Assembly: GCA_018064455.1 (NCBI GenBank) | Contig: JAGHVH010000029.1 | Span: 4,683-68,682, forward strand | Direction: 5' to 3' | DNA from: Candidatus Limimonas egerieequi | GTDB taxonomy: Bacteria; Bacillota; Clostridia; Oscillospirales; Acutalibacteraceae | DNA: 64,000 nucleotides | Part shown: piece by piece, positions 35,452 to 56,220 of the stretch | Numbering within the stretch: the first letter of the stretch is position 1 | Layout: each line of letters starts with the position of its first letter | Translations under genes and position numbers: made by a program | Notes under the pieces: model-generated | What the model was told of the DNA's origin: nothing | The model's input: only the letters and a program-made list of their open reading frames with translations | The model's database searches: none

Positions 35452-37845
35452 TTATTCAACTATACCAAACAATAAGCATTTATGAATATCCACATGCTCC
35501 TCGTCGGCATACATCCTTGAAAGAACTAAACTTGCATTAACAACAAAGCCATTAAGTTTAACAGCAATATCTGATTTCATCTGTCCATTTGGCTTGTCAA
35601 ACAACTCGCCATGAACAACATCAAGATTTGCAAATTTTACTAAATTCTCACGGTCCTCTTTGATTGCAACCTTTGGAAGGAAACATTCACGGAGCCAAGC
35701 AAGTTCGCCTGATTTTGGAAGTTCATCCTCAAAAGTATCATTGCAAGATAACTGTCTAAACGTCCTTGCATCCAAATCGAACTCATAGATGAAAGAACAA
35801 GCATTTTTCAATAGTTGCTGAAGTGACATTTCAGGCTCTTTTGCAACCTTATCACGATCAGCATCTTCCTGCCTTGCAAATTCAACATAAATTAACGCTC
35901 TAAAGTCATTGTGCTCTGGATTGTCATCAAGCCTGTCAATGGTCATCTTGGCCCATTTATATCCATCTGTCTTTGACTTAACGCGAAGTTCTGTAATAAT
36001 CTTGGACTCGTTTTGATAGAACGTAGACATAACAGAAACAGAAGCGCAACGGTTTTTAACCGTCTTAATGTCATCTGGATGAACATGCTTCTCTATAATT
36101 GCCGAAAAGTCCTCATCATAATTTGTGCCACGACGCTCCTCAGAGGAGTTAACAAATGTATATTCACCTGTGTTGTAATCGACTTCTATAAGGCTGCCCT
36201 CAAGCATATCAAGCAACGCAGCGTACTTGAGCCTTGCATCATCCTCGCCTACCTCATCAAGCGACTTGCGTGCACGGCGAAGTTCAACAGGCATCTCCTT
36301 GCGTCTGTTACCCTCAAGGAGATTCGTAAAGCGTGCATGTGGGATTGGCTCGGAATATACATATCCCTGAATAATATCACAGCCAATCTCCTTAAGGAAT
36401 GCAACCTGTGCCCAGTTTTCAATACCCTCTGCGACCGTCTTCATCTCGAGCGCGCGAGACATATTGATTACACTTGAAATAAGAGCCTTGTCACGTGACA
36501 TATTTTCACTGTCATCAAAGAAAAGCTTATCAAGTTTTAAAGTGTCCATTGGAAGGTTCTTCAAAATATTAAGTGATGAATAACCAGATCCAAAGTCATC
36601 GATTGAGCAATTAAAGCCTGACTTTTTAAGGCTTAAAACAATTTTACGAAGGATATCAAGGTTTTCAAATACGATACTCTCCGTAAATTCAAGTTCGAGT
36701 ATTCCATCAGGAATATCGTACTTTTCTTTAATCTTGGTGTAACGTTTTACAAAGTCAAGGCGATAGAATTGAAGCCTTGAAACGTTTACTGAAATTGGAA
36801 CTACTTTTACTCCTGCATCTATCCAATCACGGATGTTCTTACATACAGTTTCAAAGACATATTGGTCAAGATTAATAATAAAACCATTCTGTTCAAAAAG
36901 AGGAATAAATTTACCCGGGGACATAAAACCTGATTCTGGACTATCCCAACGAACCAATGCCTCAGCGCCAACTATTTCGCCAGTGCTTACTTCATACTTT
37001 GGCTGGAAGTATGCTTTGAATTCACCGTTAGCAAGAGCGCTTTCCATTTTGCGCTCAAGTTCCTTTTCAGCGATTACTCGCTCACGGATTTCCTCGGTAT
37101 AGAAAGCTATGTGGTACTCAGAACTGCCCTTGACTGACTTTTGAGCCATGTTAGCTCTATCTATCATCTCTGAAATCGAAAGGTTATCACTAGTTGGGTC
37201 ATCACCCGAACAATAAATACCTACGTAAATCTCTGGTTTGTAGTTTGCCTTTTGAATGTCCTCAAACCAACCGATATCATCAATAATTGTGTAAATTGTT
37301 TCTACAAAATCATTCTTATCCTTGTATGGGACGATTACTGCATAGTTATCCGCAGATACTCTGGCATAAAGGCCTGCAACGTTCGTAACTGCCTCACGAA
37401 TTCGCTGTGAGATATACATAAGTAACTTGTCGCCAACATCATATCCAAACGTATCATTGATATATTTAAAGTTTAATATGTCGCCATAGAATACAGCATG
37501 TAATTCATCTTTATATGAAAGTAATTCCTCAGCGTCCTTAAGGAACTTCTCATAATTGATACCACTAGTTAATTTGTCGGTGTCATTGTACTGAGTTGCA
37601 TGCCTTGTAAATATTGTAATGCCAATATTGATACCCATTGCCGACACTACTAAGTATCCTACGCCAAGAATTACATAATTGATTATTTTATGTAGTGTTA
37701 CAACCGCATGATCAGTGTTGTACTTTGCCAAAAAGCCTGTAATCACAGTCAAAGCGGCCAAGCATATGGAACTGCCTATTATCAGCAAAATCCTAAGTCT
37801 TTTGCTGTTAGCAGCATAATCATTTGTTTTTCTAGTATTCGCCAT
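35452..37845 (-). CDS. membrane-anchored degenerate-GGDEF / EAL protein (probable c-di-GMP phosphodiesterase) with C-terminal PAS-like modules
   Basis: Two N-terminal TM helices. The GGDEF-fold domain has SADNY at the active-site position. EAL domain motifs are GAEALVRW, ELEFTES, DDFGSGYSSL, KLDK, AEGIE and QGY. About 270 aa after the EAL domain carry a PAS-like HPDD segment. The ATG at 37845 is preferred because it is preceded by aagggga. Confidence 0.85.
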   Translation of the reverse strand: MANTRKTNDYAANSKRLRILLIIGSSICLAALTVITGFLAKYNTDHAVVTLHKIINYVILGVGYLVVSAMGINIGITIFTRHATQYNDTDKLTSGINYEKFLKDAEELLSYKDELHAVFYGDILNFKYINDTFGYDVGDKLLMYISQRIREAVTNVAGLYARVSADNYAVIVPYKDKNDFVETIYTIIDDIGWFEDIQKANYKPEIYVGIYCSGDDPTSDNLSISEMIDRANMAQKSVKGSSEYHIAFYTEEIRERVIAEKELERKMESALANGEFKAYFQPKYEVSTGEIVGAEALVRWDSPESGFMSPGKFIPLFEQNGFIINLDQYVFETVCKNIRDWIDAGVKVVPISVNVSRLQFYRLDFVKRYTKIKEKYDIPDGILELEFTESIVFENLDILRKIVLSLKKSGFNCSIDDFGSGYSSLNILKNLPMDTLKLDKLFFDDSENMSRDKALISSVINMSRALEMKTVAEGIENWAQVAFLKEIGCDIIQGYVYSEPIPHARFTNLLEGNRRKEMPVELRRARKSLDEVGEDDARLKYAALLDMLEGSLIEVDYNTGEYTFVNSSEERRGTNYDEDFSAIIEKHVHPDDIKTVKNRCASVSVMSTFYQNESKIITELRVKSKTDGYKWAKMTIDRLDDNPEHNDFRALIYVEFARQEDADRDKVAKEPEMSLQQLLKNACSFIYEFDLDARTFRQLSCNDTFEDELPKSGELAWLRECFLPKVAIKEDRENLVKFANLDVVHGELFDKPNGQMKSDIAVKLNGFVVNASLVLSRMYADEEHVDIHKCLLFGIVE

Positions 37846-38049
37846 TGTAAATTTCCCCTTAAATTTCAACAGAAAATCTCAATTTTTTATTGAAAATACA
37901 TAAATTATTCTATCATTGCTACTAACCTTTGTCAATTTTATTATTAAATATTAATAATAAAAATTACAAAATATGTTAAATACTTGTATACTTTTATTAA
38001 AAAGGTGTTATAATATATTATGTATTACTATGTATTGAGAGGTAACTTT

Positions 38050-41000
38050 ATGCCTGTACACGAAAAAGCATCAAAAATTGCAAAGGACAGTATTCTGACT
38101 ATTTCGTTAGCCGGATTGCTAGTTGTCGCCTACTTGCTGATACTTATGTATACTTACAACAGCTTAACCCAAGCTGCTGAAAATGAAATACTTAAGTCGA
38201 CATCAAACGCATCAGTAAGTATCGCAAGAATAATTGACGTCGATCACTCACAAGTAGAAATGCTAGCTGGTGAGTTAACGGCAAAATACGACGAACTCAA
38301 TCCAAATCGTGCCCTTGATATGGAAACAATCAAAGGCGAGATGATGGATTTTCTCAAAGAGAACAAGCCCGTCGATAGCCTTCTCACCACCTTCTTCTTT
38401 AGTGATGCAACCTTCGTGAACTCTCTTGGCCAAACGGGCGAAATCAAGGACTTTGATGACTTTACAAAAAAATTCTCTAACTCTCAAATATTTGTAACAG
38501 ACATATATAATCAAAACTATGAAAACTGTGTTCACTTCTATTCACAGGTTAAAAACCTAAACGGATCAACAATTGGTTATCTCACTACAACGTATAAATT
38601 TGATGATGTTTTATCTAACTGCTATGACGTTGCTGAAAAGGTCAACGGCCTTCACAACGTAATGTTCACAAGCAATGGCTCTGTAATAATCAACACTGAT
38701 AGCAAGGGTTCTTCCTTTGAATCGGTAACAAATCTCTATGAATATTTGAAGAAAAACAAATACAATGGACACCTTCCTTCTGCAGAAGAACCACAGAGTT
38801 CAACATCAATCAATACATTCTATACAGACATATCTAAAAATATTATCGCAATTGCTCCTATTCCTGATATGCAAGGCCTCTATATCGGTCGCATAATGCC
38901 AACAAGTGCAATGTTCGCAACTACAGGAAAGCTCATCGTATTTATGACGCTTGCTTCTTTCCTCTTCTTCTTTGTGCTCATTGTTATTGGATATAGGTAC
39001 TACAAGTCACTTACAGAAACATCTAACCGAATCAAAAATATCGCTTATACAGACCCACTTACAGGCTATGCAAACTTTGCCAAGTTCAAAGAGGACTGTG
39101 AAGATATTCTTACCACCGAAACTGACAAGACATTCTTCATGACCTGTTGCGATATGGTTGGTTTCCGTTATATCAACGATGCGTTCGGTTATGACACAGG
39201 TGATGAAATCCTCCTCCAAATCGCTCAGGAGATGGATAGCCTATTAAACGATGATGAAATTTTCGCGCGTATTTCAGGCGATAAATTTGTAATCTTAACA
39301 GAACGCAACTTTGCAAATACTGAAGACGAGATGTTCGTATATCAGCTTGCTGACCGCATCAGTTCAATTGGACCTCTTGCAAAGAACCACATCCGTATCG
39401 AAGTACAGATGGGTATTTACAAAATCCTTCCTGAGGATTTAGAGGACCTTTCAATCAACGCTCTTTATGACCGTAGCCTTGTTGCTTTATACTCAATCGG
39501 CCATACCGATTCAACTGCAGCAGAATATGATGCTGCAATCTATGATGAGCAAATCGAGCGTAAAGATATTGAGTCTCGTATGCATCAAGCACTCAAGGAC
39601 GGCGAGTTCAGAGTTTACGTTCAGCCAAAATACAGAACTAGCAATGCAAAACTTGCTGCTGGTGAAGCACTTATCCGCTGGATTGATCCTAATAAGGGTA
39701 TCGTTCCTCCAATCAAGTTTATTCCACTCTTTGAGCAAAACCGTTTCGTACATGACGTTGACCTCTATGTAATGGAAGTAATTGCTCGTTTCCAGAGGAT
39801 GAGACTTAACGAGGGATTGCCAGTTGTACCTATCTCACTTAACATCTCCCCTGTCGAGTTTACTATGCCTGGCTTCCGCCAGTCATATATAAGCATCAAA
39901 GATAAATACGATATTCCAGACAGACTTATCGAACTTGAGTTTACAGAGGGTATCTTCTTTGATGACGAGGAACTCTTTAAGGACGTTATTCGCGAGTTCC
40001 ACGAGCACGGTTTCTCTTGCTCAATGGACGACTTTGGTTCGGGTTATTCATCTCTTAACATTTTGAAGGATTTGCCAGTTGACGTTCTTAAGCTTGACAA
40101 ACTCTTCTTTAGAGAGAGTGAAAACACTTCACGTGACCGTTCCATCATTCGCTCCGTTGTTGCAATGGCACGTTCACTCAACATCAAAACAGTTGCCGAA
40201 GGCGTTGAAACACTTGATGTTGTTGAATTCCTTAAACTTATCGGATGTACACTCATCCAAGGTTATATCTATTCAAAGCCATTGCCACTAACTGAATTCG
40301 AAGAAAAACTCAACACTGAAAACATTGACACAGATGATGAGTTTGAATTCGACTTTGATAAGTTTGAAGTAGTTCCGCTTGATATGCCACTTTCAAGTAG
40401 CATAGACGATTCCCTCCGTAAAACATACGCAGGTATCGTTGAAATCAACGCCGGCGGCAATATCTATCATATGTACTATCCAGGTGAGCGTGACGTACAA
40501 TTTGAACCAATCCCAGAGCGTGGTTTCTACACATCATTCTATGAGGATCTCATTCCAAAGTACGTTCATCCAAAGGATATCGAAAAGGTTAAGAAAGCCC
40601 TCAATGTAATGGCTCTTACCAAACACTTCAAGTCAAACAGTGACCTCAACATTGAGTACCGCCATATGCGTAAAGACGGCAACTACTCATGGATGAAATT
40701 CCACATTATCAAAGCAACCGGTGGTCGTGAAGATAGCCAGATTTACTTCGGTTACTTCAACATCATCGATGACTACAAAGAAACCGAGGAAAGCCTTGCA
40801 GCCGCACAGAATCGTTTCGCTGCTGCATACTCCGATATCAACGGCGTTGTATTTGAGCTTGATGCCGAATCAGGTAGAGTTGATATACTTGAAACTCACT
40901 CATCTCTCCTCTCTTCAGTTAAGGATGTACACGACTACACCCAACTCTTTGGATTTATCTGTGAATTCCTCCTTCATCCAGACTACAAGATGATTGTTGA

Positions 41001-42030
41001 AAACAATTGTACCCTTGATAGGGTTAAGGAATACTTCCACAAGGAAACAAATCCAACATCTTTCAAAATCGAAGTTCAAGCCAAGCCTTCACGTAAGGTT
41101 AGCCGTTATAACTTCTACTCTGCTACTTATTCTATCCAAGCAGATTCAAACAAGATTCTTCTTATCGTAGAAGATGTTACAGAAGAAAAGATCAAGGAAG
41201 GTTCTTCAATTGTTCGTCATTATGCTACTGATGTTGCATTTGCAAACACCTATGACCGAATCAGTGTAATCAACCTTGACAAGGATGTATTTACATTGGC
41301 TACTTATCCACAAAATGGTAAGAGAAAAGCCAACGTTTCAGAAGGCAAATACTCAGTTCATTTTGATCAGAAACTTTCCGAAATGATTAAAGAAGAAGAT
41401 TTAAACACCGTATCAACGCTCACTTCTCTAGAAGGTCTTAAAAACTTCTATAACGATACATCTACAAATGAATTTAAATTCATTTTCCAAGAGCGCGTAT
41501 CTCCTGATTCGGATGAATATCACTGGAAGGAATCTCTTCTTGTATCTACGCCTGCAGCATATGGTCAAGATAGACAAGTTTATATTTTCCTTAAGGACAT
41601 TGATGATATTCGTGAGACAGAGAAAAATCTCAACGAATATGCTCACAGGCTCAGTTATTCACTTGCAATGTTTGACTATGCTTACACTGTGAACTGTGAC
41701 ACAGAAGCTGTCGATATCATTGGTGGTCTTCACTTTGAAAACGAGTTGTTTGAGAATGACAACTTGACCTATAACGATATCACAACAATTGTTAAGAACA
41801 CAGTTATCGCAGAGGATAGCCAAGCGGCATTTAGAAGACTCTCTTACATAGATGAGCTCATGGATCACTTCTCAAATCACCCAGCAATCCTTACACGAAT
41901 CTTTAGGGCGCAGGACCCAGATAAGAGATTTGTTGAAGTAACAATCATCTATGGTTCACGAGAGCACTCACTCACTTTCTTCATCAGAGAACTCAACAAG
42001 AACTTAATCGATGAGGTCAATGAAGCATAA
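38050..42030 (+). CDS. large membrane sensor: extracytoplasmic domain + degenerate GGDEF + EAL + four C-terminal PAS-like modules
   Basis: TM1, a ~270-aa extracytoplasmic region, then TM2. The GGDEF-fold domain has SGDKF at the active-site position. EAL motifs are GEALIRW, ELEFTEG, DDFGSGYSSL, KLDK, AEGVE and QGY. About 570 aa of repeated PAS-like segments follow. The ATG at 38050 is preferred because it is preceded by gagagg. Confidence 0.85.
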   Translation: MPVHEKASKIAKDSILTISLAGLLVVAYLLILMYTYNSLTQAAENEILKSTSNASVSIARIIDVDHSQVEMLAGELTAKYDELNPNRALDMETIKGEMMDFLKENKPVDSLLTTFFFSDATFVNSLGQTGEIKDFDDFTKKFSNSQIFVTDIYNQNYENCVHFYSQVKNLNGSTIGYLTTTYKFDDVLSNCYDVAEKVNGLHNVMFTSNGSVIINTDSKGSSFESVTNLYEYLKKNKYNGHLPSAEEPQSSTSINTFYTDISKNIIAIAPIPDMQGLYIGRIMPTSAMFATTGKLIVFMTLASFLFFFVLIVIGYRYYKSLTETSNRIKNIAYTDPLTGYANFAKFKEDCEDILTTETDKTFFMTCCDMVGFRYINDAFGYDTGDEILLQIAQEMDSLLNDDEIFARISGDKFVILTERNFANTEDEMFVYQLADRISSIGPLAKNHIRIEVQMGIYKILPEDLEDLSINALYDRSLVALYSIGHTDSTAAEYDAAIYDEQIERKDIESRMHQALKDGEFRVYVQPKYRTSNAKLAAGEALIRWIDPNKGIVPPIKFIPLFEQNRFVHDVDLYVMEVIARFQRMRLNEGLPVVPISLNISPVEFTMPGFRQSYISIKDKYDIPDRLIELEFTEGIFFDDEELFKDVIREFHEHGFSCSMDDFGSGYSSLNILKDLPVDVLKLDKLFFRESENTSRDRSIIRSVVAMARSLNIKTVAEGVETLDVVEFLKLIGCTLIQGYIYSKPLPLTEFEEKLNTENIDTDDEFEFDFDKFEVVPLDMPLSSSIDDSLRKTYAGIVEINAGGNIYHMYYPGERDVQFEPIPERGFYTSFYEDLIPKYVHPKDIEKVKKALNVMALTKHFKSNSDLNIEYRHMRKDGNYSWMKFHIIKATGGREDSQIYFGYFNIIDDYKETEESLAAAQNRFAAAYSDINGVVFELDAESGRVDILETHSSLLSSVKDVHDYTQLFGFICEFLLHPDYKMIVENNCTLDRVKEYFHKETNPTSFKIEVQAKPSRKVSRYNFYSATYSIQADSNKILLIVEDVTEEKIKEGSSIVRHYATDVAFANTYDRISVINLDKDVFTLATYPQNGKRKANVSEGKYSVHFDQKLSEMIKEEDLNTVSTLTSLEGLKNFYNDTSTNEFKFIFQERVSPDSDEYHWKESLLVSTPAAYGQDRQVYIFLKDIDDIRETEKNLNEYAHRLSYSLAMFDYAYTVNCDTEAVDIIGGLHFENELFENDNLTYNDITTIVKNTVIAEDSQAAFRRLSYIDELMDHFSNHPAILTRIFRAQDPDKRFVEVTIIYGSREHSLTFFIRELNKNLIDEVNEA

Positions 42031-42082
42031 AGTGTGAAAGCCAAAACTTTAGTATTGTATATACTATAATAATTTGCTAAAA

Positions 42083-42120
42083 TATTGAGGCGGTCCAAAC
42101 GGGCCACCTCAATATTAATT
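42083..42120 (+). terminator. probable terminator hairpin after the large EAL gene
   Basis: Imperfect hairpin atattgaggcggtcc-aaac-gggccacctcaatat followed by an A/T-rich tail. The T-run is weak. Confidence 0.45.
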
Positions 42121-42138: not shown

Positions 42139-42534
42139 ATGAAAGGCTTTATCGCAGAATTTAAAGAATTTTTAGCACAGGGTAACGCAATGGACCTCGC
42201 TGTAGGCGTAGTAATCGGCGGTGCTTTTACAGCAATCGTTAACGCTCTCATCGAATCTATCATCAACCCACTCATCGCACTTATTGCTGGTCAGACTGAT
42301 TTCTCAGCAGTTAAGATTGGTATGTTCCCAATCGGCGTTCTTATCGCTGCAGTAATTAACTTCATCCTTATCGCTTTCGTTGTATTCCTTCTTGTTAAGG
42401 CTGTTAACACAGTTAAGGAAAAGGCAAGCAAGAAGAAAGACGAGCCAGCAGAGGAAGCTGCAGATGAACCAGCAGCACCAACACAGGAAGAACTCCTTGC
42501 TGAAATCGTTGACCTTTTGAAAGCAAAGAAATAA
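42139..42534 (+). CDS. mscL: large-conductance mechanosensitive channel
   Basis: MKGFIAEFKEFLAQGNAMDLAVGVVIGGAFTAIVNALIESIINP is the canonical MscL N-terminus. Two TM helices and a charged C-terminal helix. Confidence 0.95.
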   Translation: MKGFIAEFKEFLAQGNAMDLAVGVVIGGAFTAIVNALIESIINPLIALIAGQTDFSAVKIGMFPIGVLIAAVINFILIAFVVFLLVKAVNTVKEKASKKKDEPAEEAADEPAAPTQEELLAEIVDLLKAKK

Positions 42535-42551
42535 TTTAAGGAAGAACACTC

Positions 42552-43652
42552 ATGAGAACTCTATATTTTGACTGCGGCAGTGGCGCTGCTGGCGATATGA
42601 TTTCCGCTTCCCTCTTCGAACTTATCGATGACAAGGAAGGGTTCTTAAAAGACATAAATAACGCCGGCATCCCCCATGTTACAGTTGAGGTTGAACCATC
42701 AACCAAACATGGTGTCACCGGCACTCATTTTAAGGTCTCAATAAATGGTGAAGAAGAGGAAGCGGCAGAAGCAGTATCCGATGACGCAGAACTCTCAGAA
42801 TTACACCACCATCACGGTCATCATCACCACCATCATCACACACTTGATGATATCACTGATTTGATTGACTCTCTTGACATACCAAACCAGGTGCGAGAGG
42901 ATGCAATAAGTGTGTACAAGCTTATTGCTGAAGCAGAGGGCCAGGTACACGGTGCAACGCCAAGTGAAGTACACTTCCACGAAGTTGGTTCACTTGATGC
43001 CGTTGCAGACATCGTATCGGCATCCTGGCTCATCAATATCTTGGACCCAGAGCTTATTATTGCATCTCCAATGAACACCGGTTCAGGTAAAGTCAAGTGT
43101 GCACACGGCATATTGCCTGTGCCAGCCCCTGCAACCGCCCTTTTACTCCGTGATATACCAATCTATAGCACAGACATAAAAGGCGAATTATGCACGCCTA
43201 CAGGCGCTGCTCTCATCAAGCACTTTGCACGCCAGTTCGGCCCTATCCCATCCATTAGGATGGAGAGTATAGGCTACGGCATGGGTGCAAAGGATTTCGA
43301 GACAGCGAACTGCCTCCGTGCAATACTCGGTGAGACCGACAATGTAATTGTCGAAGAGCCAGTTTTCGCTCGTCATCCAGTTAACCAGAGTGAAGAGCAA
43401 AAAAAGATTATTATCAACCGTATATCACGTGTGATAGGCCATCTTGAAAGCATTAAGAGAATGGTTGAGAACAACCGTGACACTGACGAAGTTTTAATTC
43501 AGCTCTCAGCAGTCGAATCTTCTATCAATTCTGTAAGACGTGTCATCATCAAATCCCACTTTAAGCACGCTATCAAGGGTGCTATTGAAAGTGGCGGAGA
43601 TGCCCACGCAACAGAAAGCGTTTATGGTCTAGTTGATAAATTCCTTAAATAA
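42552..43652 (+). CDS. fusion protein: LarC N-terminal (nickel-insertion, DUF111) domain with His-rich tract + C-terminal CsoR/RcnR/FrmR-like (DUF156) domain
   Basis: Residues 1 to ~275 match the LarC N-terminal half (MRTLYFDCGSGAAGDM, HHHHGHHHHHHH tract, HFHEVGSLDAVADIV, GILPVPAPAT, TPTGAALIKHF, ANCLRAILGE). The last ~85 aa align to CsoR-type repressors (KKIIINRISRVIGHLESIKRMVENNRDTDEVLIQLSAVESSINSVRR...SHFKHAI). Confidence 0.8.
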   Translation: MRTLYFDCGSGAAGDMISASLFELIDDKEGFLKDINNAGIPHVTVEVEPSTKHGVTGTHFKVSINGEEEEAAEAVSDDAELSELHHHHGHHHHHHHTLDDITDLIDSLDIPNQVREDAISVYKLIAEAEGQVHGATPSEVHFHEVGSLDAVADIVSASWLINILDPELIIASPMNTGSGKVKCAHGILPVPAPATALLLRDIPIYSTDIKGELCTPTGAALIKHFARQFGPIPSIRMESIGYGMGAKDFETANCLRAILGETDNVIVEEPVFARHPVNQSEEQKKIIINRISRVIGHLESIKRMVENNRDTDEVLIQLSAVESSINSVRRVIIKSHFKHAIKGAIESGGDAHATESVYGLVDKFLK

Positions 43653-43657: not shown

Positions 43658-43697
43658 TTAACCCCCTAGATGATCTCATCTAGGGGGTTTTCTTTAT
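43658..43697. terminator. bidirectional rho-independent terminator
   Basis: Hairpin accccctagatga-tctc-atctagggggt with flanking A/T runs, between convergent genes. Confidence 0.8.
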
Positions 43698-43707: not shown

Positions 43708-45732
43708 TTAGAACTTTTTTCTCATTGCACCTGTTGGACAAGCGTCAACGCACTTGCCACAAGTAGCACAGTAAGCTGCTGCTTCTGCTTTAGGGAACAT
43801 AGGATTGATTGTTGTATTGAATCCACGGTTATAGAGACCGATGAATGTCTTCTTTGCAACTTCTTCACATGTTCTGTAGCAGAGACCGCAAAGTACGCAC
43901 TTATCTGGGTTATGCTCGATAACATCAGCGATTTCAATGAAGTCGCGGTGATGCTTCATGCCAGGGAATTTAGCTGGCTCAACATCATACCAGTTAGCAT
44001 ACTTGATAAGGCGGCAGTCATAGTAATCATGACAACCACACTCGAGGCAACGGCTTGCTTCCTTCTTAGCCTGCTCTTCTGAGAAACCGAAGTAGATAGG
44101 CTTGAAGTTGTTCTTTCTCTCCTCTGGTGAGAGACCTGGCATCTCAGCTCTGTCGATCTTTTCACGATCCTCAAAGTCCTCAGCTGTCTTCTCTGTCTCA
44201 ACAAAGTATGGAGCCTTGTAACGTACTTCAGCACCATCAAGGAAGTTGTTGATGCAGAAAGCTGCCTTTGAAGCCTCGCCGATAGCTGCGATAGCAATAC
44301 CAGCGCCCTTGTTTGTAACGTCACCAGCTGCGAATACGTTCTCGATGTTTGTACGGAATGTCATCTCATCGCAAAGGATTGTGCCCTTCTTGGTAAGTTC
44401 AACTCCGTCAACACCAGCACAGTTTGCAACCTGGCCGATAGCCATAATAACGTTATCAAGTTTGATGTCTTCTGTCTTACCCTCTACAGGTACTGGAGAA
44501 CGACGACCTGATGCATCTGGCTCGCCAAGTTCCATAATCTGGAGCTTCATGTTAAGAGCATCGCCGTCTTGTGTAATCTCGATAGGATTTGTGAGGAACT
44601 TAAAGATAACGCCCTCTTCCTCAGCCTCTTCGATTTCGATATCAGCTGCAGGCATCTCGTTTCTTGTACGTCTATAAACAACGTATACTTCCTCTGCGCC
44701 AAGACGAATTGCTGTACGGCAAGCGTCCATAGCTGTGTTACCACCACCGCAAACGGCAACTCTCTTGCCGATTGTTGGTGTCTCACCAAGACCAAGCTTA
44801 CCAAGGAAGTCAATACCACCGATAACGCCTGGGAGGTCCTCACCAGCAACTCTCATTGGTACAGATGTCCAAGCACCGATAGCAACAAGAACTGCGTCAT
44901 AAGTCTTAACAAGTTCATCGAACTGAATATCACGGCCAAGCTTGCAGTTGTTCTTCATAGCAACGCCAGCATCAGCGATGATAGAAATTTCATCGTCGAG
45001 TACAGCCTTTGGAAGTCTGTATTCTGGGATACCATAGCGAAGCATACCGCCCATCTTTGGCTGCTGATCAAAAATTGTAACAGCGTGACCATATTCACGA
45101 AGCTTGTAAGCAGCTGTAAGTCCTGCAGGACCACCACCGATGATAGCAACTTTCTTACCTGTGTCAGCGCCTGTTTCAATCTTGTATCTGTTGTCGCTAG
45201 CAAGAACCTTATCTGCTGCAAATGCCTTAAGGAAAGCAATTGAGATTGGCTCTTCAACGAGCTGACGACGACAAGCATCTTCACATGGATGTGGGCAAAC
45301 ACGACCAATAGATGCTGGAAGTGGGAAAGCTTCGTAAACTGTTGAAACGGCTTCGAAATACTTACCATCCTTGATTTCATTGACATACTTCTGGCAGTCT
45401 GTACCAGCTGGGCAATGAAGCTTACATGGACCACGGCAATCACCTGTGTGGTCAGAAAGAAGAAGCTCGAAAGCTGTCTTACGTGCACGGATTACACGAG
45501 GTGTATCTGTGTGAACAACATAACCTTCCATTGGCTTTGCTGAGCATGAGCGAAGAAGTTTTGGAACACCCTCAACCTCTACTACGCAGACACCGCATGC
45601 ACCGTAAATTGCTGTATTCTCTGCAAAACAAAGAGTAGGGATTTCTACGCCAGCTCTAGTTGCAGATGAGAGTATAGTTTCACCGTCTTCTGCGATTACT
45701 TCTACACCATCAATAGTGTACTTAATTGACAT
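43708..45732 (-). CDS. 2Fe-2S/4Fe-4S ferredoxin-domain + GltD/NfnB-like NAD(P)H flavin oxidoreductase fusion (StnC-like)
   Basis: The N-terminus is a NuoG/HydA-type 2Fe-2S domain (CF...GACGVCVVEV) with an H/C cluster (HTGDCRGPCKLHCP). The central part is GltD-like (VAIIGGGPAGLTAAY, GGGNTAMD). The C-terminus has Cys-rich 4Fe-4S motifs (CVLCGLCYRTC, CATCGKCVDACP). No H-cluster motifs. Confidence 0.8.
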   Translation of the reverse strand: MSIKYTIDGVEVIAEDGETILSSATRAGVEIPTLCFAENTAIYGACGVCVVEVEGVPKLLRSCSAKPMEGYVVHTDTPRVIRARKTAFELLLSDHTGDCRGPCKLHCPAGTDCQKYVNEIKDGKYFEAVSTVYEAFPLPASIGRVCPHPCEDACRRQLVEEPISIAFLKAFAADKVLASDNRYKIETGADTGKKVAIIGGGPAGLTAAYKLREYGHAVTIFDQQPKMGGMLRYGIPEYRLPKAVLDDEISIIADAGVAMKNNCKLGRDIQFDELVKTYDAVLVAIGAWTSVPMRVAGEDLPGVIGGIDFLGKLGLGETPTIGKRVAVCGGGNTAMDACRTAIRLGAEEVYVVYRRTRNEMPAADIEIEEAEEEGVIFKFLTNPIEITQDGDALNMKLQIMELGEPDASGRRSPVPVEGKTEDIKLDNVIMAIGQVANCAGVDGVELTKKGTILCDEMTFRTNIENVFAAGDVTNKGAGIAIAAIGEASKAAFCINNFLDGAEVRYKAPYFVETEKTAEDFEDREKIDRAEMPGLSPEERKNNFKPIYFGFSEEQAKKEASRCLECGCHDYYDCRLIKYANWYDVEPAKFPGMKHHRDFIEIADVIEHNPDKCVLCGLCYRTCEEVAKKTFIGLYNRGFNTTINPMFPKAEAAAYCATCGKCVDACPTGAMRKKF

Positions 45733-45745
45733 AAATTTCCCTCCC

Positions 45746-47506
45746 TTACTTAACTATAATTGCACCCTGACGGCAAACTGTCTTACAGTTACCGCACTTG
45801 ATGCACTTATCAGCGTCAATCTTAAATGGTGATTTAACTTCGCCACTAATAGCGTTAGCTGGGCACTTCTTAGCGCAGAGTGAGCAACCGATGCACTTAG
45901 ATTCGTCAATAGAATAAGTGATAAGTTTTACGCACTCGCCAGCTGGGCAACGCTTCTCACTAATGTGAGCTTCCATTTCTGGTCTGAAGTAACGAATAGT
46001 TGTGAGAACTGGGTTTGGAGCAGTCTGTCCAAGTCCGCAAAGAGCACCGTCCTTGATAGCGTTGCAGAGCTCTTCGAGTTTCTCGATATCGCCCTCTTCG
46101 CCTTCGCCGTCAACTATGCGGCCAAGGATTTCAAGCATGCGCTTTGTACCGATACGACAGTGTACACACTTACCGCAGCTTTCCTTAGCTGTGAAGTCAA
46201 GGAAGAACTTAGCCATACCAACCATACATGTTGTCTCGTCCATAACAACCATACCACCAGAGCCCATGATAGCACCTGTAGCGCCAAGAGCCTTGTAGTC
46301 GATTACTGTGTCAAGAAGAGATGCTGGAATACATCCGCCTGATGGACCACCGAGCTGAACTGCCTTGAATTCCTTGTCGTTTCTGATACCGCCACCGATA
46401 TCATAGATAACCTCACGAAGAGTTTTACCCATAGGAATCTCAACAAGTCCGCCGCGCTTAATCTTACCAGTAAGAGCAAATACCTTTGTGCCCTTTGATT
46501 CAGCTGTACCCATTGCTGCAAATGCGTCACCGCCATTTGCAATAATCCAAGCAACGTTTGCATATGTCTCAACGTTGTTGATGTTAGAAGGCTTAAACCA
46601 GAAACCAGACTGTGCTGGGAATGGTGGCTTAAGGCGTGGCATACCACGTTTACCTTCCAAAGACTCTATCAAAGCTGTTTCCTCGCCGCATACAAATGCG
46701 CCGGCACCAGCCTTAATTCTCATCTTGCATGAGAAGTTAGAACCTAAAATGTTGTCTCCAAGGAAGCCACGGTCTGTTGCATCCTTGATAGCGTTCTCAA
46801 GACGAACGATAGCAAGAGGATACTCAGCACGAACGTAAACGATAGCTTCCTTTGCGCCGATAGCGTACGCACCGATAAGCATACCCTCAATAAGAGTATG
46901 TGGGTCACCCTCGATTACGGCACGATCCATGAATGCGCCTGGGTCGCCCTCGTCGGCATTACAAATAAGATACTTCTCTTCGCCTTCTGAAGACTTTGCT
47001 GCTCTCCACTTGAAAGCAGTTGAGAAACCAGCACCGCCACGACCCTTAAGACCAGACTTATCAATTTCATTGATAACGTCATCCTGAGTCATACCAGTTG
47101 TCAAAATCTTCTTGAGTGCCTCATAACCGCCACGAGCGATGTATTCGTCAATGCTCATAGGATTGATGATACCACAGTTACGAAGAGCGATACGTGTCTG
47201 CTGCTCAAGGAAAGATGCATCTTCAGCTGTAATTGTGATGTCGTCAACAAGTGACAAATCATTGCTGTTTACAGCATCATAAATCTTCTGAGCGTCAGCG
47301 TCTGTAACGTGAACAAGTCTGCGAACAAGTGCGTCACCATCGTAAAGGTCAACGATTGGCTCTAAAAAGCACATGCCGATACAGCTTGTTATTGTTACAA
47401 CAGAACCTGATGGATTTGCAGCTGCAAAGAGTTCATCAAGTTTTGCATGGACTTTACCAGCACCAGCAGCAAGTCCGCAAGAACCTTCACCTACTACTAT
47501 TTTCAT
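45746..47506 (-). CDS. NuoF/HydB-like NADH-binding FMN/Fe-S subunit
   Basis: GRGGAGFSTAFKW, NADEGDPGAF, ESCGKCVHCRIG, plus two C-terminal 2x[4Fe-4S] motifs (CIGCSLCAKKCP, CIKCGNCKTVC). Confidence 0.88.
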   Translation of the reverse strand: MKIVVGEGSCGLAAGAGKVHAKLDELFAAANPSGSVVTITSCIGMCFLEPIVDLYDGDALVRRLVHVTDADAQKIYDAVNSNDLSLVDDITITAEDASFLEQQTRIALRNCGIINPMSIDEYIARGGYEALKKILTTGMTQDDVINEIDKSGLKGRGGAGFSTAFKWRAAKSSEGEEKYLICNADEGDPGAFMDRAVIEGDPHTLIEGMLIGAYAIGAKEAIVYVRAEYPLAIVRLENAIKDATDRGFLGDNILGSNFSCKMRIKAGAGAFVCGEETALIESLEGKRGMPRLKPPFPAQSGFWFKPSNINNVETYANVAWIIANGGDAFAAMGTAESKGTKVFALTGKIKRGGLVEIPMGKTLREVIYDIGGGIRNDKEFKAVQLGGPSGGCIPASLLDTVIDYKALGATGAIMGSGGMVVMDETTCMVGMAKFFLDFTAKESCGKCVHCRIGTKRMLEILGRIVDGEGEEGDIEKLEELCNAIKDGALCGLGQTAPNPVLTTIRYFRPEMEAHISEKRCPAGECVKLITYSIDESKCIGCSLCAKKCPANAISGEVKSPFKIDADKCIKCGNCKTVCRQGAIIVK

Positions 47507-48003
47507 GACTCTGCACCTGCCTTTTCTCTAAGCTCACGAAGTATTGTCTTTGTCTTGTCAGGTGTGAGACTTCCGTATGTCTCTCCGTTGATCATCATAA
47601 CTGGTGACAAAGAACAACAACCAAGGCAAGCAACATGCTTAAGTGAGAACAAGCCATCGTCAGTTGTTTCACCATCAACGATACCAAGTTCATCCTTGAT
47701 AGCGGCAGCTATCAACTCAGAGCCATTAACATGGCAAGCTGTTCCCTGGCAAAGCATAATCAAATACTTACCAACTGGCTTTAATCTAAACTGTGTATAG
47801 AATGTAGCAACACCCATAACCTTTGCTGGTGCAACACCAGTCTCCTCAGCTATGTGGTAGATTACATCTACAGGTAGATAGCCATAGATTTCCTGTGCTT
47901 GTTGAAGAATTGCAATAAGGCTACCATTGATTCCCTTGTAGTGCTCAAGCACTGGCTCGAGCAAAGAGAGATCAGATGCCTTATCATTACAGCAACAACC
48001 CAT
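47503..48003 (-). CDS. NuoE/HydC-like thioredoxin-fold 2Fe-2S subunit
   Basis: Cys pattern CQGTACH...CLGCCSLSP, typical of NuoE. Overlaps the NuoF-like gene. Confidence 0.85.
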   Translation of the reverse strand: MGCCCNDKASDLSLLEPVLEHYKGINGSLIAILQQAQEIYGYLPVDVIYHIAEETGVAPAKVMGVATFYTQFRLKPVGKYLIMLCQGTACHVNGSELIAAAIKDELGIVDGETTDDGLFSLKHVACLGCCSLSPVMMINGETYGSLTPDKTKTILRELREKAGAES

Positions 48004-48166: not shown

Positions 48167-49210
48167 TCAAAAAGCGAACTGGAATACGCAATAACCTGCA
48201 TAAATGCATAGGAGTGCAATTCCCTGCCACCTATAAAGTTTGCCTTTGATAAGTCCTGGCAATGTCAAAAGGAGCATAACAGTGAACATCACTGGTATAT
48301 CCACTACTAAACTTGCATTCATTCCACCGATAAGTTTCTCTGCTGGTACAGCAAATGGATTAATTGTAATTGCCATACCAGATACCAAAACAAGATTAAA
48401 CAAATTCGCACCGATAACGTTACCAAGTGACAACGCACCATGGCCCTTGCGAAGAGAAGTAATTGCCGTAACAAGCTCTGGAAGCGAAGTGCCTAGAGCA
48501 ACAAGAGTAAGTGCAATTACAGATTCTGGAACGCCAATCTTCTGAGCGAGGATGGTGCAGTTATCAACGAGTAAGTTTGCGCCTACTGCGATAGCAATAG
48601 CGCCAACAACAAGATAGATTACGTTAATCAACACTGATGTTTCTGCTTCGTCTTCTTCCTCTTCTACTACAGCTCCATCAGCCAAAGGATTCTTCATAGC
48701 AACAAGTGCTGACTTAATTTGAAGACCAATGTAAACTGCAAAAACAGAGAGCAGGATTATACCAATAGTCCTTGAGAAAGTGCCAGTTACAATAGCAACA
48801 CCTGCATAGAGGATTGCTGAGCCAAAGAAGAAAGCAGATGGCACTCTCATGCTCTTTTTATCTGTAAATCCAGGAGCAAATGCGATTGTAATAGCACAGA
48901 TAAGTGATGCATTACATATGATTGAACCAATAGCATTGCCGTATGCTGTTTGTGACTGCCCAACAGCGGCAGCGCTTGCTGATACAAGCACCTCTGGAAG
49001 TGTTGTACCAATAGATACAACTGTCGCGCCTATGAGCAAATCAGGAACACCAAACTTCTTAGCAATACCTACTGCTCCGTCAACAAATTTATCTCCACCA
49101 ATAATTAATAGGACAAGGCCCACAGCAAAAAGTGCTATTGCTATTGGGAAAACGAGCCCATCAGATACCGAAAAATTTATGAGTCCAAAAAGTGTACTCA
49201 TCTCTGTCAT
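48167..49210 (-). CDS. CaCA-family cation/Ca2+ antiporter (YrbG type)
   Basis: Two internally repeated alpha-repeat halves (GTTLPEVLVSASAA; GTSLPELVTAITS) separated by an acidic loop (EEEEDEAE). Confidence 0.85.
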   Translation of the reverse strand: MTEMSTLFGLINFSVSDGLVFPIAIALFAVGLVLLIIGGDKFVDGAVGIAKKFGVPDLLIGATVVSIGTTLPEVLVSASAAAVGQSQTAYGNAIGSIICNASLICAITIAFAPGFTDKKSMRVPSAFFFGSAILYAGVAIVTGTFSRTIGIILLSVFAVYIGLQIKSALVAMKNPLADGAVVEEEEDEAETSVLINVIYLVVGAIAIAVGANLLVDNCTILAQKIGVPESVIALTLVALGTSLPELVTAITSLRKGHGALSLGNVIGANLFNLVLVSGMAITINPFAVPAEKLIGGMNASLVVDIPVMFTVMLLLTLPGLIKGKLYRWQGIALLCIYAGYCVFQFAF

Positions 49211-49224
49211 TTAAATTCACCTCT

Positions 49225-49818
49225 TTAGAAAAATACGCCTGTTATAAAGATTTCAAGACCTATTCCAATTAGGATTACGCCACCGAGCACATCGGCTTTC
49301 CAGCCGAGTTTTGTGCCGACTTTTTTACCAATAATTACTCCGACAACTGAAATTACGAAAGTGACAATCGCAATTATCAAGTTGCATATTGTCGCCTCAA
49401 AAAGGCTGTACTTTGAAATAGTAAATCCCACTGACAAAGCATCAATTGAAGTTGCGACTGCTTGTATAAACAGCGCCTTCATTGTGAGCTTTTCAAGTGC
49501 CACTTCTTCAGCAGATTTACGGGATTTGATACCATCAATCAGCATCTCTCCACCTATATATAAAAGAAGAAGTAATGCAATCCATGGAATAAACTTTTCA
49601 AAACTTTTAAAACGTTCTGCTATTGTGTGTACACAGAACCAGCCAATCATTGGCATGAGTGCCTGAAAAACTGCATAGGCACCACCAATAAGACAAATCT
49701 TAGGAACTCCCATTGTTGGTTCCTTAAGACCGTTTGCAAGGGACACAGAAAAAGCGTCCATCGCAAGGCCAACGCCCAATACTATCGAAAACGCTATAAA
49801 GCTCCACGTAATTCCCAT
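49225..49818 (-). CDS. mntP: manganese efflux pump MntP
   Basis: DUF204 repeats (GLAMDAFSVSLANG; ATSIDALSVGFT). The ATG at 49818 is preferred because it is preceded by ggaggaa. The track start at 49848 lies inside the riboswitch terminator stem. Confidence 0.85.
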   Translation of the reverse strand: MGITWSFIAFSIVLGVGLAMDAFSVSLANGLKEPTMGVPKICLIGGAYAVFQALMPMIGWFCVHTIAERFKSFEKFIPWIALLLLLYIGGEMLIDGIKSRKSAEEVALEKLTMKALFIQAVATSIDALSVGFTISKYSLFEATICNLIIAIVTFVISVVGVIIGKKVGTKLGWKADVLGGVILIGIGLEIFITGVFF

Positions 49819-49840
49819 ATTTCCTCCAAGTAATAAAAAA

Positions 49841-49962
49841 AGACTCATGTGTGGTGCTTACCACACATGAGTCTCGCAATTTAAAGCAATGCCAGACCAA
49901 AAAGGTCAGGATGTTGACAGTTGCTACGCATTCGCGTCTGCTACTCCCTCAAGGGATGTCAA
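49841..49962 (-). promoter_or_regulatory. yybP-ykoY (manganese) riboswitch with terminator expression platform
   Basis: The minus strand reads cttgaGGGAGTAGCagacgcgaatgcgtagcaactGTCAACATcctgacc...ggtctGGCATTGCttt, matching the conserved yybP-ykoY core. It is followed by the hairpin agactcatgtgtgg...ccacacatgagtct and a T-run. Sits directly upstream of mntP. Confidence 0.8.
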
Positions 49963-51696: not shown

Positions 51697-52194
51697 CTAT
51701 TTGTCGATTCTTTCGTTTTCTTTCTCAAGGTCTTCCATAAACTGGTGAAGTGTCTGAACAAGCAAAAGCGTTTTAACATTACCAAGAGGCAAACTAGAAA
51801 GGATTCCCTTTGGAACATTTGCCAATTCCTTTTTGAGTTCAAGCCCTCTTTCCGTCAAGAACACTTGCATATTACGCTCATCTTTTTGATCGCGCTTTCT
51901 CTCAACATATCCAACCGTTTCTAACTTCTTAAGAAGCGGAGTCAAAGTACCAGAATCAAGGAACAACCTCTTACCAAGTTCCTTGACGTTTACGCCATCC
52001 TTCTCCCACAGTGCCATCAATGTGATGTAACCCGTATAGGTCAAATCATAGGGATCAAGAAATGATTTGTACCTTCTAATTACCTCTTTTGACGACACGT
52101 AAAGTGAGAAGCAAAGTTGGTTATCAAGTTTTTGCAATTCATCATCTGGGATTGCCGAAAGGGCCAATCCAGCGAATTTGTTTTCCTTAGCCAT
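51697..52194 (-). CDS. ohrR: MarR-family organic-hydroperoxide-sensing regulator (OhrR type)
   Basis: LDNQLCFSLYVSSKE (the conserved sensing-Cys context) and YLDSGTLTPLLKKLE..GYVERKR...DER closely resemble OhrR. I prefer the ATG at 52194 (MAKENKF). Confidence 0.75.
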   Translation of the reverse strand: MAKENKFAGLALSAIPDDELQKLDNQLCFSLYVSSKEVIRRYKSFLDPYDLTYTGYITLMALWEKDGVNVKELGKRLFLDSGTLTPLLKKLETVGYVERKRDQKDERNMQVFLTERGLELKKELANVPKGILSSLPLGNVKTLLLVQTLHQFMEDLEKENERIDK

Positions 52195-52253
52195 TACTTC
52201 ACCCGCTAAATAAAAATACATATTAATTGTAAACAATTTATGCAGGAAATTCA

Positions 52254-52287
52254 ATAATAAAAGGGAGCCTTTCGGCTCCCTTTTTAC
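52254..52287. terminator. bidirectional terminator hairpin at the core/island junction
   Basis: aagggagcc-tttc-ggctccctt flanked by an A-run and a T-run. Confidence 0.7.
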
Positions 52288-52829
52288 TAATTCAGTTCTT
52301 CAAATTTAATGTTATTATCCGTAGCGTATTTCTCTACTTTTGAATTCTTTTGAGCACAAATCATTGCATTTGTATCAATAAAAACACAATCTCCAAATAA
52401 TGTATCTGGATTATTTATTATTACTTTTTTCAAACTTTTGCACTCTGCAAATGCCCATGAATTAATTTGATAAACACTTTTCGGAACTACTACAGTTTCA
52501 ATAATTTTATTGTGCACAAAACAAGTTATATCAATTTTTTTTACAGATATATTCTCAATTTCATTAGGTATTTCTATTTCAGTTTTGTTTCCAATATAGT
52601 CAACTATTATTACTTCTGCTTTCGCATCATCAATGTAATACTTGTAACCATCCAAAGTCGTTTTAATTCCAAGTGTCTCTTCTTGCTCTACGATATTAAA
52701 TTTATCGTTGCTATTCTTAACCGCTGGAGCAACTATAATTTTATTTAATAAAAATGCAGAAAACGACACTAAAACAAATACTAATATAGAGAGAACTACC
52801 AATTTCCTTGTAATCAGTTTACTCTTCAT
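52287..52829 (-). CDS. membrane-anchored BspA-type leucine-rich-repeat protein
   Basis: N-terminal TM (LVVLSILVFVLVSFSAFLL) followed by LRR_5-like units (IEIPNEIENISVKKIDITCF; VVVPKSVYQINSWAFAECKSLKKVII). ATG at 52829. Confidence 0.6.
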   Translation of the reverse strand: MKSKLITRKLVVLSILVFVLVSFSAFLLNKIIVAPAVKNSNDKFNIVEQEETLGIKTTLDGYKYYIDDAKAEVIIVDYIGNKTEIEIPNEIENISVKKIDITCFVHNKIIETVVVPKSVYQINSWAFAECKSLKKVIINNPDTLFGDCVFIDTNAMICAQKNSKVEKYATDNNIKFEELN

Positions 52830-53442: not shown

Positions 53443-53451
53443 ATTGTCACC

Positions 53452-55589: not shown

Positions 55590-55623
55590 AATAGAGTAGG
55601 GCAAAAGCCCTACTCCTTCCTAA

Positions 55624-56061
55624 TTATAATAATGTGCCTGTCTCTTCATCCCAGTATCCTGATACAACATATGCAGTTGCAACATTATTATTGTTACGAA
55701 CACCAAGGTCCGTATTTTTGTGATAAGCATTATTATAAACACCTTTATAATATTTGCCATTTCCACAAATCACATTTACAACATCAGAATATTGTGTGCG
55801 TGTTATTCCTGAACTAGCAAGCCAATAAATAGCGATAGCCGATGTCCCTTCAGCATTATAAGTCATATTCACCATCCAAGGATTATTTGTCTTATCAGAA
55901 TCACGATATCTTGAATCTCCACAATAATTGTTAGCGCAATTCTTTTTCATAGTAAATGAATATGGGAAATTATCCTCTGCTGCGAATGCAGAAAATGATA
56001 AAGCCATTGACAAAACCACTATTACTACTAATAACAAACTAATCTTTTTTGTACTTTTCAT
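55624..56061 (-). CDS. small secreted protein (145 aa, Sec signal peptide, Cys-containing, Asn/Tyr-rich)
   Basis: Signal peptide MKSTKKISLLLVVIVVLSMALSFSAFA|AEDN. The mature part is beta-rich with 3 Cys. I recognise no family. Confidence 0.6.
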   Translation of the reverse strand: MKSTKKISLLLVVIVVLSMALSFSAFAAEDNFPYSFTMKKNCANNYCGDSRYRDSDKTNNPWMVNMTYNAEGTSAIAIYWLASSGITRTQYSDVVNVICGNGKYYKGVYNNAYHKNTDLGVRNNNNVATAYVVSGYWDEETGTLL

Positions 56062-56215: not shown

Positions 56216-56220
56216 CCTCG

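Follow-up and report, generated by a model that had tools for sequence, protein, structure and literature searches.

A LarC1 domain fused to a cysteine-free CsoR-type domain in uncultured gut Oscillospirales, a candidate regulator with an exchanged sensor

A gene in Candidatus Limimonas egerieequi, within the 64,000-nucleotide stretch of contig JAGHVH010000029.1 that we analysed (hereafter the window), joins the N-terminal domain of the nickel-insertion protein LarC (LarC1) to a domain of the CsoR/RcnR family of repressors. Here we show that the product of this gene (42552–43652, + strand) is a true LarC1/CsoR-type chimera. Judged by its aligned residues, the CsoR-like domain is a natural knockout of the canonical (InrS-type) metal site, whereas the His cluster and acidic pocket of LarC1 are intact. 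It is quite possible, although still tentative, that the fusion is an InrS-like DNA-binding repressor of the CsoR/RcnR family whose own site has been disabled and whose sensing has been handed to the N-terminal LarC1; DNA binding, the effector, the coupling of the domains and the regulon are the parts of this reading that we infer. We found no description of a fusion between LarC1 (DUF111) and CsoR in the open-access literature.

The 366-residue protein is organized as follows (coordinates are those of the window).

42552–43652, + strand: fusion gene, encoding LarC1, a linker and a Cys-less CsoR/InrS-like domain, 366 amino acids (open reading frame)
42552–43337, + strand: LarC1 domain, residues 1–262, mixed alpha/beta (Pfam, NCBIfam, alignment to 12bi, AlphaFold2)
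42804–42839, + strand: His tract HHHHGHHHHHHH, residues 85–96, a disordered loop (alignment, AlphaFold2 confidence)
43338–43391, + strand: flexible linker, residues 263–280, with H275-P276 (low AlphaFold2 confidence, alignments)
43392–43649, + strand: CsoR/RcnR-family domain, residues 281–366, three helices, with ligand positions X = T311, Y = H336 and Z = A340 (Pfam, AlphaFold2, Foldseek)

A first-pass annotation, made from the letters alone, had described the N-terminal half of LarC, its His tract included, followed by a CsoR-type segment in place of the CTP-binding half of LarC (LarC2), and profile searches bear this out. The Pfam family PF01969 (Ni_insertion) matches residues 4–268 (E = 4.7e-85) over profile positions 1–235 of 375, covering the LarC1 half only, and LarC2 is absent from the polypeptide. 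With the NCBIfam model TIGR00299 (‘nickel_LarC1’) the score is 207 bits, where 90 bits is the cut-off. At the other end, PF02583 (Trns_repr_metal; CsoR/RcnR, DUF156) matches residues 284–354 (E = 1.6e-18) with 67.3 bits, where the cut-off is 22.8 bits; a linker of about 20 residues joins the two domains. In HMMER comparisons with solved structures, residues 92–264 align with full-length Moorella thermoacetica LarC (12bi; E = 1e-46), and the best solved relative of the C-terminal part is the nickel sensor InrS (5fmn), which aligns ungapped with residues 274–364 (E = 2e-12), followed by CsoR (4m1p) and FrmR.

An AlphaFold2 model built from 33 family members (mean predicted local distance difference test score, pLDDT, 83) contains an alpha/beta domain at residues 1–261, with pLDDT mostly above 85 in LarC1, a disordered His loop at 82–92 (pLDDT below 50), a disordered linker at about 270–274 and helices at 281–306, 311–346 and 351–365. 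In Foldseek searches the helical part matched InrS with a template-modelling (TM) score of 0.82 and 34% identity, and also matched CsoR and CstR; TM scores against the listed InrS, CsoR, CstR and FrmR chains were 0.63–0.86 when normalized by target length. The LarC1 part of the model had no Foldseek match in a structure library older than the release of the LarC structure, and the LarC1 fold has been described as unique (PMC13510736).

An artefact in which a frameshift or misassembly brought together a truncated larC and a csoR-like gene, an objection foreseen in the first-pass annotation, is vanishingly improbable and is ruled out by recurrence, selection and RNA. A word-indexed protein search returned at least 73 protein clusters (90% identity level) with both Pfam domains, 47–93% identical and 351–430 amino acids long, derived from NCBI, ENA and Logan assemblies of Acutalibacteraceae/Oscillospiraceae gut and rumen metagenome-assembled genomes (MAGs). 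The few named clusters carry only the label ‘DUF111 family protein’ and come from Clostridia/Oscillospiraceae MAGs. The identical window protein is found on five independent contigs. When a single genome for each GTDB species was scanned with the C-terminal domain as query, 18 fusion-bearing genomes emerged, one of them a MAG 98–99% identical to the window, all from gut or rumen and assigned to Acutalibacteraceae, ‘Ruminococcaceae’ UBA, Oscillospiraceae and Candidatus Limimonas; the fusion is limited to Oscillospirales from gut and rumen, all of them uncultured. A comparison of the window protein with a 91%-identical relative gave ratios of nonsynonymous to synonymous substitution rates (dN/dS) of 0.048 in LarC1 and 0.036 in the CsoR-like domain, and in more distant pairs the proportion of nonsynonymous differences (pN) in the linker is about twice that of the domains. 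Both domains are thus under purifying selection. Finally, one metatranscriptome contig (X25, 42939–43573) crosses the domain junction free of indels, and another (X26, 42434–42592) spans the stop codon of the upstream gene, mscL, and the start of the fusion. These gut metatranscriptomes are of low depth and may carry over DNA, so we take the contigs as showing that the gene is expressed and continuous, and not as marking transcript ends.

What LarC1 does in LarC was addressed by a 2026 cryogenic electron microscopy and mutagenesis study, which assigned CTP-dependent CMPylation to LarC2 and ascribed nickel binding and insertion, with formation of the Ni–C bond, to LarC1, by way of a surface His cluster and an adjoining acidic pocket (PMC13510736). 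In that study, substitution of H108, H118 or H160 left LarC with nearly no activity, substitution of D15, R71, E104, E119, D124, D128 or E187 lowered activity markedly, and E104 was proposed as the nucleophile. With residue equivalences taken from the HMMER alignment to 12bi (chain numbering minus 18), the fusion counterparts of D15, E104, H108, H116, H118, E119, D124, D128, H160 and E187 are D15, E129, H133, H141, H143, E144, D149, D153, H185 and E212. E129, H133, H141, H143, E144, D153, H185 and E212 are kept in all 33 aligned fusions, and D15, D149 and Y205 in 30–32 of the 33; the position of LarC R71 is His in the fusion, as it also is in an ordinary LarC. The putative Ni-binding His cluster would consist of H133, H141, H143 and H185, and the acidic pocket of D15, E129, E144, D149, D153 and E212. 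The length of the His tract varies widely in the family, the shortest having about 6 residues and the longest more than 60.

The state of the CsoR-like half is the opposite. Members of the CsoR/RcnR family carry a ligand fingerprint at positions W-X-Y-Z, which reads Cys36-His61-Cys65 in CsoR, His3-Cys35-His60-His64 in RcnR and His21-Cys53-His78-Cys82 in InrS, and in InrS the substitutions C53A, H78L and C82A each impair Ni(II) binding (PMC4235346). In HMMER alignments with InrS and CsoR, position X (InrS C53, Mycobacterium tuberculosis CsoR C36) falls on Thr311 of the window protein. The first-pass annotation had Asp in the place of the first ligand Cys; this needs correcting, because Asp310 lies one residue earlier, at position ‘A’. 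Its reading of the H…C pair as H…A holds (H336…A340). Across the 33 fusions, X is occupied by Ala in 27 and Thr in 6, Y by His in all but one and Z by Ala in 26 and Ser in 7; 31 of the C-terminal domains have no cysteine at all. Because X and Z are non-ligand residues in every member and cysteine is absent from nearly all, the canonical site is naturally disabled, which agrees with the earlier idea of a CsoR-like scaffold without its own metal site and parallels the loss of Ni(II) binding in InrS C53A and C82A.

The residues implicated in DNA contact have, for the most part, fared differently. In Escherichia coli FrmR these are K10, R14, R16, R17, Q41, R46 and the C-terminal K91 (PMC5146963). 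The counterparts of R14, R17, Q41 and K9/10 (R290, R293, Q317 and K285) are invariant in the fusion family, and that of K91 (K366) is kept in 32 of 33 members.

The history of the C-terminal domain gives further indications of what it may do. Its nearest non-fusion relatives are stand-alone proteins of 98–190 amino acids and 47–56% identity, found in Lachnospiraceae, Terrisporobacter, Robinsoniella, Mitsuokella, Anaerocolumna, Blautia and others. Their N-terminal tail is His-rich and matches the fusion linker, and they share the motifs NRLSRAIGHLESxKRMV and QLxAV with the fusion domain; unlike the fusions they retain the canonical Cys-His-Cys ligands (GRDC...DHxxHC), lack LarC1 and occur in varied contexts. 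The fusions make up a single clade in a neighbour-joining tree, with these canonical His-tailed proteins as its sister group and InrS as the nearest characterized protein. As the linker is His-rich in many relatives and its H275-P276 is nearly invariant, it looks like a remnant of the His-rich tail of the sister clade.

Several lineages have since lost LarC1. Three species genomes (L015, L017 and L019) and two representatives of 50% clusters (P0121 and P0123) encode derivatives of 143–179 amino acids that start as the LarC1 N-terminus does (MKTLYxDCS...), skip its core and continue into the Cys-less domain, which is retained at 60–73% identity. These derivatives are nested within the fusion clade in the tree and are therefore secondary deletions. 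In two divergent fusions, P0202 and P0248, LarC1 has decayed and the His tract is lost: both have replacements at E129, H133, E144, H185 and E212, to which P0248 adds H141 and H143, so that half or more of the mapped essential LarC1 residues are gone in the pair and nearly all in P0248. The CsoR-like domain of both is still recognizable. A CsoR-like domain that is kept without a working LarC1 must have a function of its own, which argues against a role as mere scaffold. To our knowledge, the only activity of the CsoR/RcnR fold is DNA binding. Because the domain survives the loss of LarC1, has a fold with this activity and keeps most of the DNA-contact residues, we regard it as the probable functional core of the protein.

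The canonical His-tailed Clostridia clade itself appears uncharacterized. Its gene neighbours are lineage-specific (MATE, Mrp/NUBPL, MscS, DUF362 and CbiM), so no single metal can be inferred as its effector. In ten Lachnospiraceae loci (L029, L039, L055, L056, L064, L069, L070, L083, L085 and L086) an Mrp/NUBPL-type P-loop ATPase of the iron–sulfur cluster carrier family (PF10609) lies 16–356 bp after the canonical His-tailed CsoR-like gene; the canonical gene follows a MATE transporter in Terrisporobacter and precedes CbiM-PDGLE (Co/Ni uptake) in Anaerocolumna. Other architectures of the canonical domain include a tandem duplication of 174 amino acids (P0122), an S-adenosylmethionine (SAM)-methyltransferase-like N-terminus followed by a His tail and the CsoR-like domain (P0175), and fusions to a fragment of a sigma-54 activator or of a substrate-binding protein (P0143 and P0154), which may be gene-calling artefacts.

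We propose that the three-helix C-terminal domains would assemble into the tetrameric helical bundle usual for such proteins, in which Q317, the C-terminal Lys and the conserved basic residues on helix 1 would contact DNA, with four LarC1 domains suspended from the bundle on flexible linkers of 20–40 residues. Nickel, or possibly a nucleotide of the nickel-pincer pathway, would fill the His cluster and acidic pocket, and the occupied LarC1 would then associate differently with itself or with the bundle, so that DNA binding is changed. The protein would be made from a bicistronic mscL operon in gut bacteria of the Acutalibacteraceae/Oscillospiraceae. Nickel is the obvious candidate effector, with a pincer-pathway nucleotide less likely, and the operon’s own control by the fusion is an obvious but unsupported candidate for the regulon. 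It is rather unlikely that LarC1 was recruited as a receptor for nickel, for pyridinium-3,5-bisthiocarboxylic acid mononucleotide (P2TMN) or for NPN (nickel-pincer nucleotide); on that reading, expression of the MscL operon might be tied to nickel status.

The operon comprises the following features, in addition to the fusion gene.

42055–42083, + strand: putative sigma-A promoter of the mscL–fusion operon, with −35 TTGTAT (42055–42060), a 17-nucleotide spacer and extended −10 TGCTAAAAT (42075–42083) (sequence, comparison)
42085–42112, + strand: 5′-leader RNA hairpin between the promoter and the mscL ribosome-binding site, followed by a U-rich stretch (RNA fold, covariation)
42139–42534, + strand: mscL, large-conductance mechanosensitive channel, 131 amino acids, first cistron (homologues in PF01741)
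42538–42544, + strand: ribosome-binding site of the fusion, AAGGAAG, 7 nucleotides ahead of the ATG, in a 17-nucleotide intercistronic gap (sequence)
43660–43689, not strand-specific: bidirectional intrinsic terminator with a 13-bp stem, common to the convergent gene 43708–45732 (prediction)

The first-pass annotation had called for the neighbours of homologous fusions to be compared, and the comparison showed mscL upstream in nearly all. In about 22 loci mscL lies directly upstream of the fusion or of a LarC1-less derivative, except in L017 and L022, and its homologues in L005, L006, L092 and L093 are annotated as PF01741. The gap between the two genes is 3–26 bp in most loci, the genes flanking the pair vary, and the pairing extends to two of the three deletion derivatives and to both decayed fusions. 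The surroundings form a syntenic region with local rearrangements, consisting of mraZ, an H+-pyrophosphatase (H+-PPase) gene, an optional GGDEF/EAL pair, mscL, the fusion and then either MarR or NaCaEx-MntP-HerA, into which a NuoE/NuoF/GltD-like cluster is sometimes inserted. Because the whole region is syntenic, the mscL adjacency may be inherited and not functional. In two loci (L006 and L016; 11224–12204) the fusion and the antiporter gene share one strand, the antiporter gene coming about 33–40 bp after the fusion, possibly as a three-gene operon.

The arrangement TTGTAT-17-TGnTAAAAT recurs in 13–14 of 19 homologous mscL upstream regions; a generic promoter scan missed the mscL promoter because its −35 matches only three of six positions. 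The leader hairpin has a folding energy of −19 kcal/mol (z = −3.7), and in six related loci its 12 pairs include five with compensatory changes, with G–U pairs that fit the + strand only. It is clade-specific, and its presence is unrelated to the integrity of LarC1. Hairpins stand at the equivalent position in L008, L009, L010, L013, L014 and L093. The element could be a 5′ stabilizer, an attenuator or a terminator of the upstream GGDEF/EAL gene that overlaps the start of mscL.

The persistence of the mscL pairing, which is the most constant feature across intact, decayed and deleted LarC1 while the flanks vary, suggests another account: the protein may be a cytoplasmic partner of MscL, its Cys-less helical domain acting on the channel (for example on the C-terminal helical bundle) or responding to it, with LarC1 as an accessory. 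A parallel exists in Robinsoniella and Murimonas (L037, L038, L041, L051 and L052; about 8955–10264), where a canonical Cys-His-Cys relative starts about 6 bp after, or overlaps, the gene of an MscS-type channel. MscS is unrelated to MscL, however, and as this pairing is limited to one lineage among 63 canonical loci it may be chance. The synteny of the region, the two loci without mscL at this position and the fact that we know of no CsoR-family protein that binds a channel also count against a channel partner, which we consider quite improbable.

A different possibility is that the protein buffers or delivers nickel (or cobalt or zinc) without binding DNA, the His tract and the LarC1 cluster holding the metal and the CsoR-like bundle serving as a tetramerization scaffold. 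The long and highly length-variable His tract resembles those of nickel storage and chaperone proteins, the CsoR-like metal site is lost, the mscL upstream regions yielded no operator, and translation is apparently coupled to that of a gene for an abundant membrane protein. However, a pure scaffold should decay after the loss of LarC1, yet the CsoR-like domain is kept, and oligomerization alone does not require that R290, R293, K285, K366 and Q317 be (nearly) invariant. Nor did Pfam annotation of the window place any nickel-enzyme or maturation gene near the fusion. A metallochaperone is therefore an unlikely explanation, and we favour a regulator over it because the CsoR-like domain outlasts LarC1 and most of the FrmR DNA-contact residues are invariant.

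Conservation in LarC1 is not restricted to the His cluster. The catalytic and pocket residues are kept as well, including E129, the counterpart of the proposed nucleophile, which would fit a trigger enzyme: LarC1 would still insert nickel to make the nickel-pincer nucleotide, with CMP-activated substrate coming from a separately encoded LarC2 or independent of CTP activation, and the CsoR-like part would serve oligomerization and perhaps feedback regulation. LarC1 without LarC2 in cis is not unique to the fusion family. In P0093 (L087–L089; 9240–10828) a stand-alone LarC1 of 275 amino acids overlaps the end of larB by 4 nucleotides and is followed by an SRAP-domain gene, with no LarC2 or LarE within 10 kb; further LarC1-only proteins are found in P0089 (89 members) and P0119. 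LarC1-only proteins have lengths of 269–275 amino acids, and they prompt one to ask whether LarC2 must always be supplied in cis.

The genomic context does not favour such an enzyme. Using LarE, LarB and LarC2 from the canonical larE-larB-larC-nik operon of L090 as tblastn queries, we found no match in the 64-kb window or within ±10 kb of the fusion in about 20 loci, and no Lar_N, AIRC or LarE-type protein was found by Pfam among the window open reading frames, LarA having been checked through that annotation only. The first-pass claim that larA, larB and larE are missing from the window is thus upheld. In addition, changes to the LarC1–LarC2 linker kill the activity of LarC, which makes an enzyme function in trans unlikely: when the M. 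thermoacetica linker was deleted, shortened, stiffened or replaced, activity fell below 10% (PMC13510736). The fusion also holds a fixed housekeeping position, near the dcw cluster, the H+-PPase gene and mscL, and not a place in a metabolic operon, and its CsoR-like domain outlives LarC1 in several lineages. We therefore judge a trigger enzyme unlikely. A lar cluster near the canonical regulator clade occurs in one locus only, L071 of an Oscillospirales MAG, where larB-larE-larC (44–2295) and a canonical CsoR-like gene (9890–10264) lie 9 kb apart on opposite strands.

The reading as a repressor that senses through LarC1 must itself be set against several observations. In LarC the LarC1 domains form trimers, whereas CsoR proteins are tetramers, which leaves no simple geometry for allostery. 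Even for LarC itself, nickel bound to LarC1 has yet to be observed directly (PMC13510736). The FrmR positions R16 and R46 are non-basic in the fusions (S/A292 and E/Q322), the latter being K/R in the canonical sister clade. A second cistron behind a channel gene, separated from it by as little as 3 nucleotides (L092), is an unusual place for a repressor and would suit a stoichiometric partner. A search for shared 8-mers, with one mismatch allowed, in the 130 nucleotides upstream of mscL in 19 loci revealed no operator or shared palindrome, only the promoter and ribosome-binding site being common. An AT-flanked G/C palindrome at 42085–42112 was considered as an operator and rejected, given its covariation as an RNA stem, its + strand G–U pairs and its restriction to one clade. 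Last, the lineages without a functional LarC1 indicate that LarC1 is dispensable. The first-pass annotation had proposed a chimeric nickel-responsive regulator or chaperone; the chimera, the lost CsoR site, the intact LarC1 site and the lack of lar neighbours stand, but the LarC1-less relatives show that the LarC1 module it relied on is not indispensable.

Comparison with characterized systems sets the fusion apart from each of its parents. Relative to LarC, a CTP-dependent cyclometallase that makes the nickel-pincer nucleotide (Lactiplantibacillus plantarum; M. thermoacetica, 12bi), residues 1–262 are a full LarC1, about 55–60% identical to ordinary LarC1, and have in common with it the His-rich loop, His cluster and acidic pocket, the last with its proposed nucleophile. 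In contrast to LarC, the fusion has a CsoR-type helical domain in place of LarC2, the CTP-binding hexamer core, and does not lie beside larB, larE and nickel-transporter genes as in the L090 operon. Synechocystis InrS (5fmn) is the best match of the C-terminus in sequence and structure, without gaps over 91 residues that include part of the tail before helix 1, and shares the Y His. It differs in that C53 and C82 are Thr/Ala and Ala/Ser in the fusion, the candidate for W, H21, is Gln, and InrS is a stand-alone protein of about 107 amino acids that controls a nickel exporter; no nickel exporter, nrsD-like or other, is adjacent to the fusion. CsoR (M. tuberculosis and Bacillus subtilis), RcnR and FrmR (both E. 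coli) and CstR belong to the same Pfam family and have the same three-helix fold, and their helix-1 Arg, helix-2 Gln and C-terminal Lys are kept in the fusion, but each has a Cys at X and the fusion family has none. As far as we know, every characterized CsoR/RcnR member senses its effector, be it metal, persulfide or formaldehyde, through that Cys.

Lacking LarC2, a lar context, a Cys at X and a ligand at Z, the fusion is neither a LarC nor a canonical CsoR/RcnR sensor, and it is a homologue of both. Its residues are compatible with a CsoR-family regulator that has a swapped-in sensor domain, a view we hold with some reserve. NikR, BirA, PutA and NadR pair a DNA-binding module with a distinct domain for a ligand or metal, which in some of them derives from an enzyme of the sensed pathway. 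These are analogies and not homologues, and the coupling in the fusion is hypothetical.

The rest of the window consists of housekeeping genes (rpoD, dnaG, pheST and the dcw cluster) and a low-GC island, as annotated by Pfam. Between the H+-PPase gene and mscL lie two large divergent GGDEF/EAL proteins of 805 and 1336 amino acids (35452–42030), a pair missing from the more distant fusion loci L005, L018, L020 and L023. Convergent on the fusion gene is a trio of NuoE-like, NuoF-like and GltD/2Fe-2S/4Fe-4S oxidoreductase genes (43708–48003, − strand), by appearance an NADH-dependent ferredoxin/NADP oxidoreductase or else a bifurcating module. Only some relatives have the trio, which lies between the fusion and NaCaEx, and it is therefore a block that was inserted or lost. 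Two cation-transport genes travel with the locus, one for a Na_Ca_ex family antiporter and one for a manganese exporter of the MntP type (48167–49848, − strand). The island (52000–64000) has a GC content of 29–34% against about 43% and was probably acquired horizontally. It encodes DUF2705/DUF2712 proteins with an ABC ATPase (52819–56061), an extracytoplasmic function (ECF) sigma factor with a DUF4367 anti-sigma-like partner (56699–58059), a 1266-residue RHS-repeat protein (60158–63958) and an LRR_5 protein. Elsewhere in the window, a 481-residue open reading frame beside a MacB/FtsX-type permease (18933–20378, − strand) has no Pfam match at E ≤ 1e-5.

CsoR/RcnR sensors are a textbook case of a ligand fingerprint that sets effector specificity. 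If LarC1 is indeed a receptor for nickel or for P2TMN/NPN, which we think rather unlikely, the fusion would be a CsoR-family regulator that dispenses with a sensing cysteine and a transcription factor whose input module stems from a cofactor metal insertase, each the first of its kind, and would possibly sense an organometallic cofactor or its precursor. The fusion would surprise the metalloregulator and LarC fields alike. A natural LarC1 that lacks LarC2 and is attached to a small helical bundle offers a handy object for studying what LarC1 binds alone, and the natural series of intact, decayed and deleted LarC1 domains provides a means to ask what the module contributes. The clade would show that metalloregulators can be rewired by domain swap and not by retuning of ligands.

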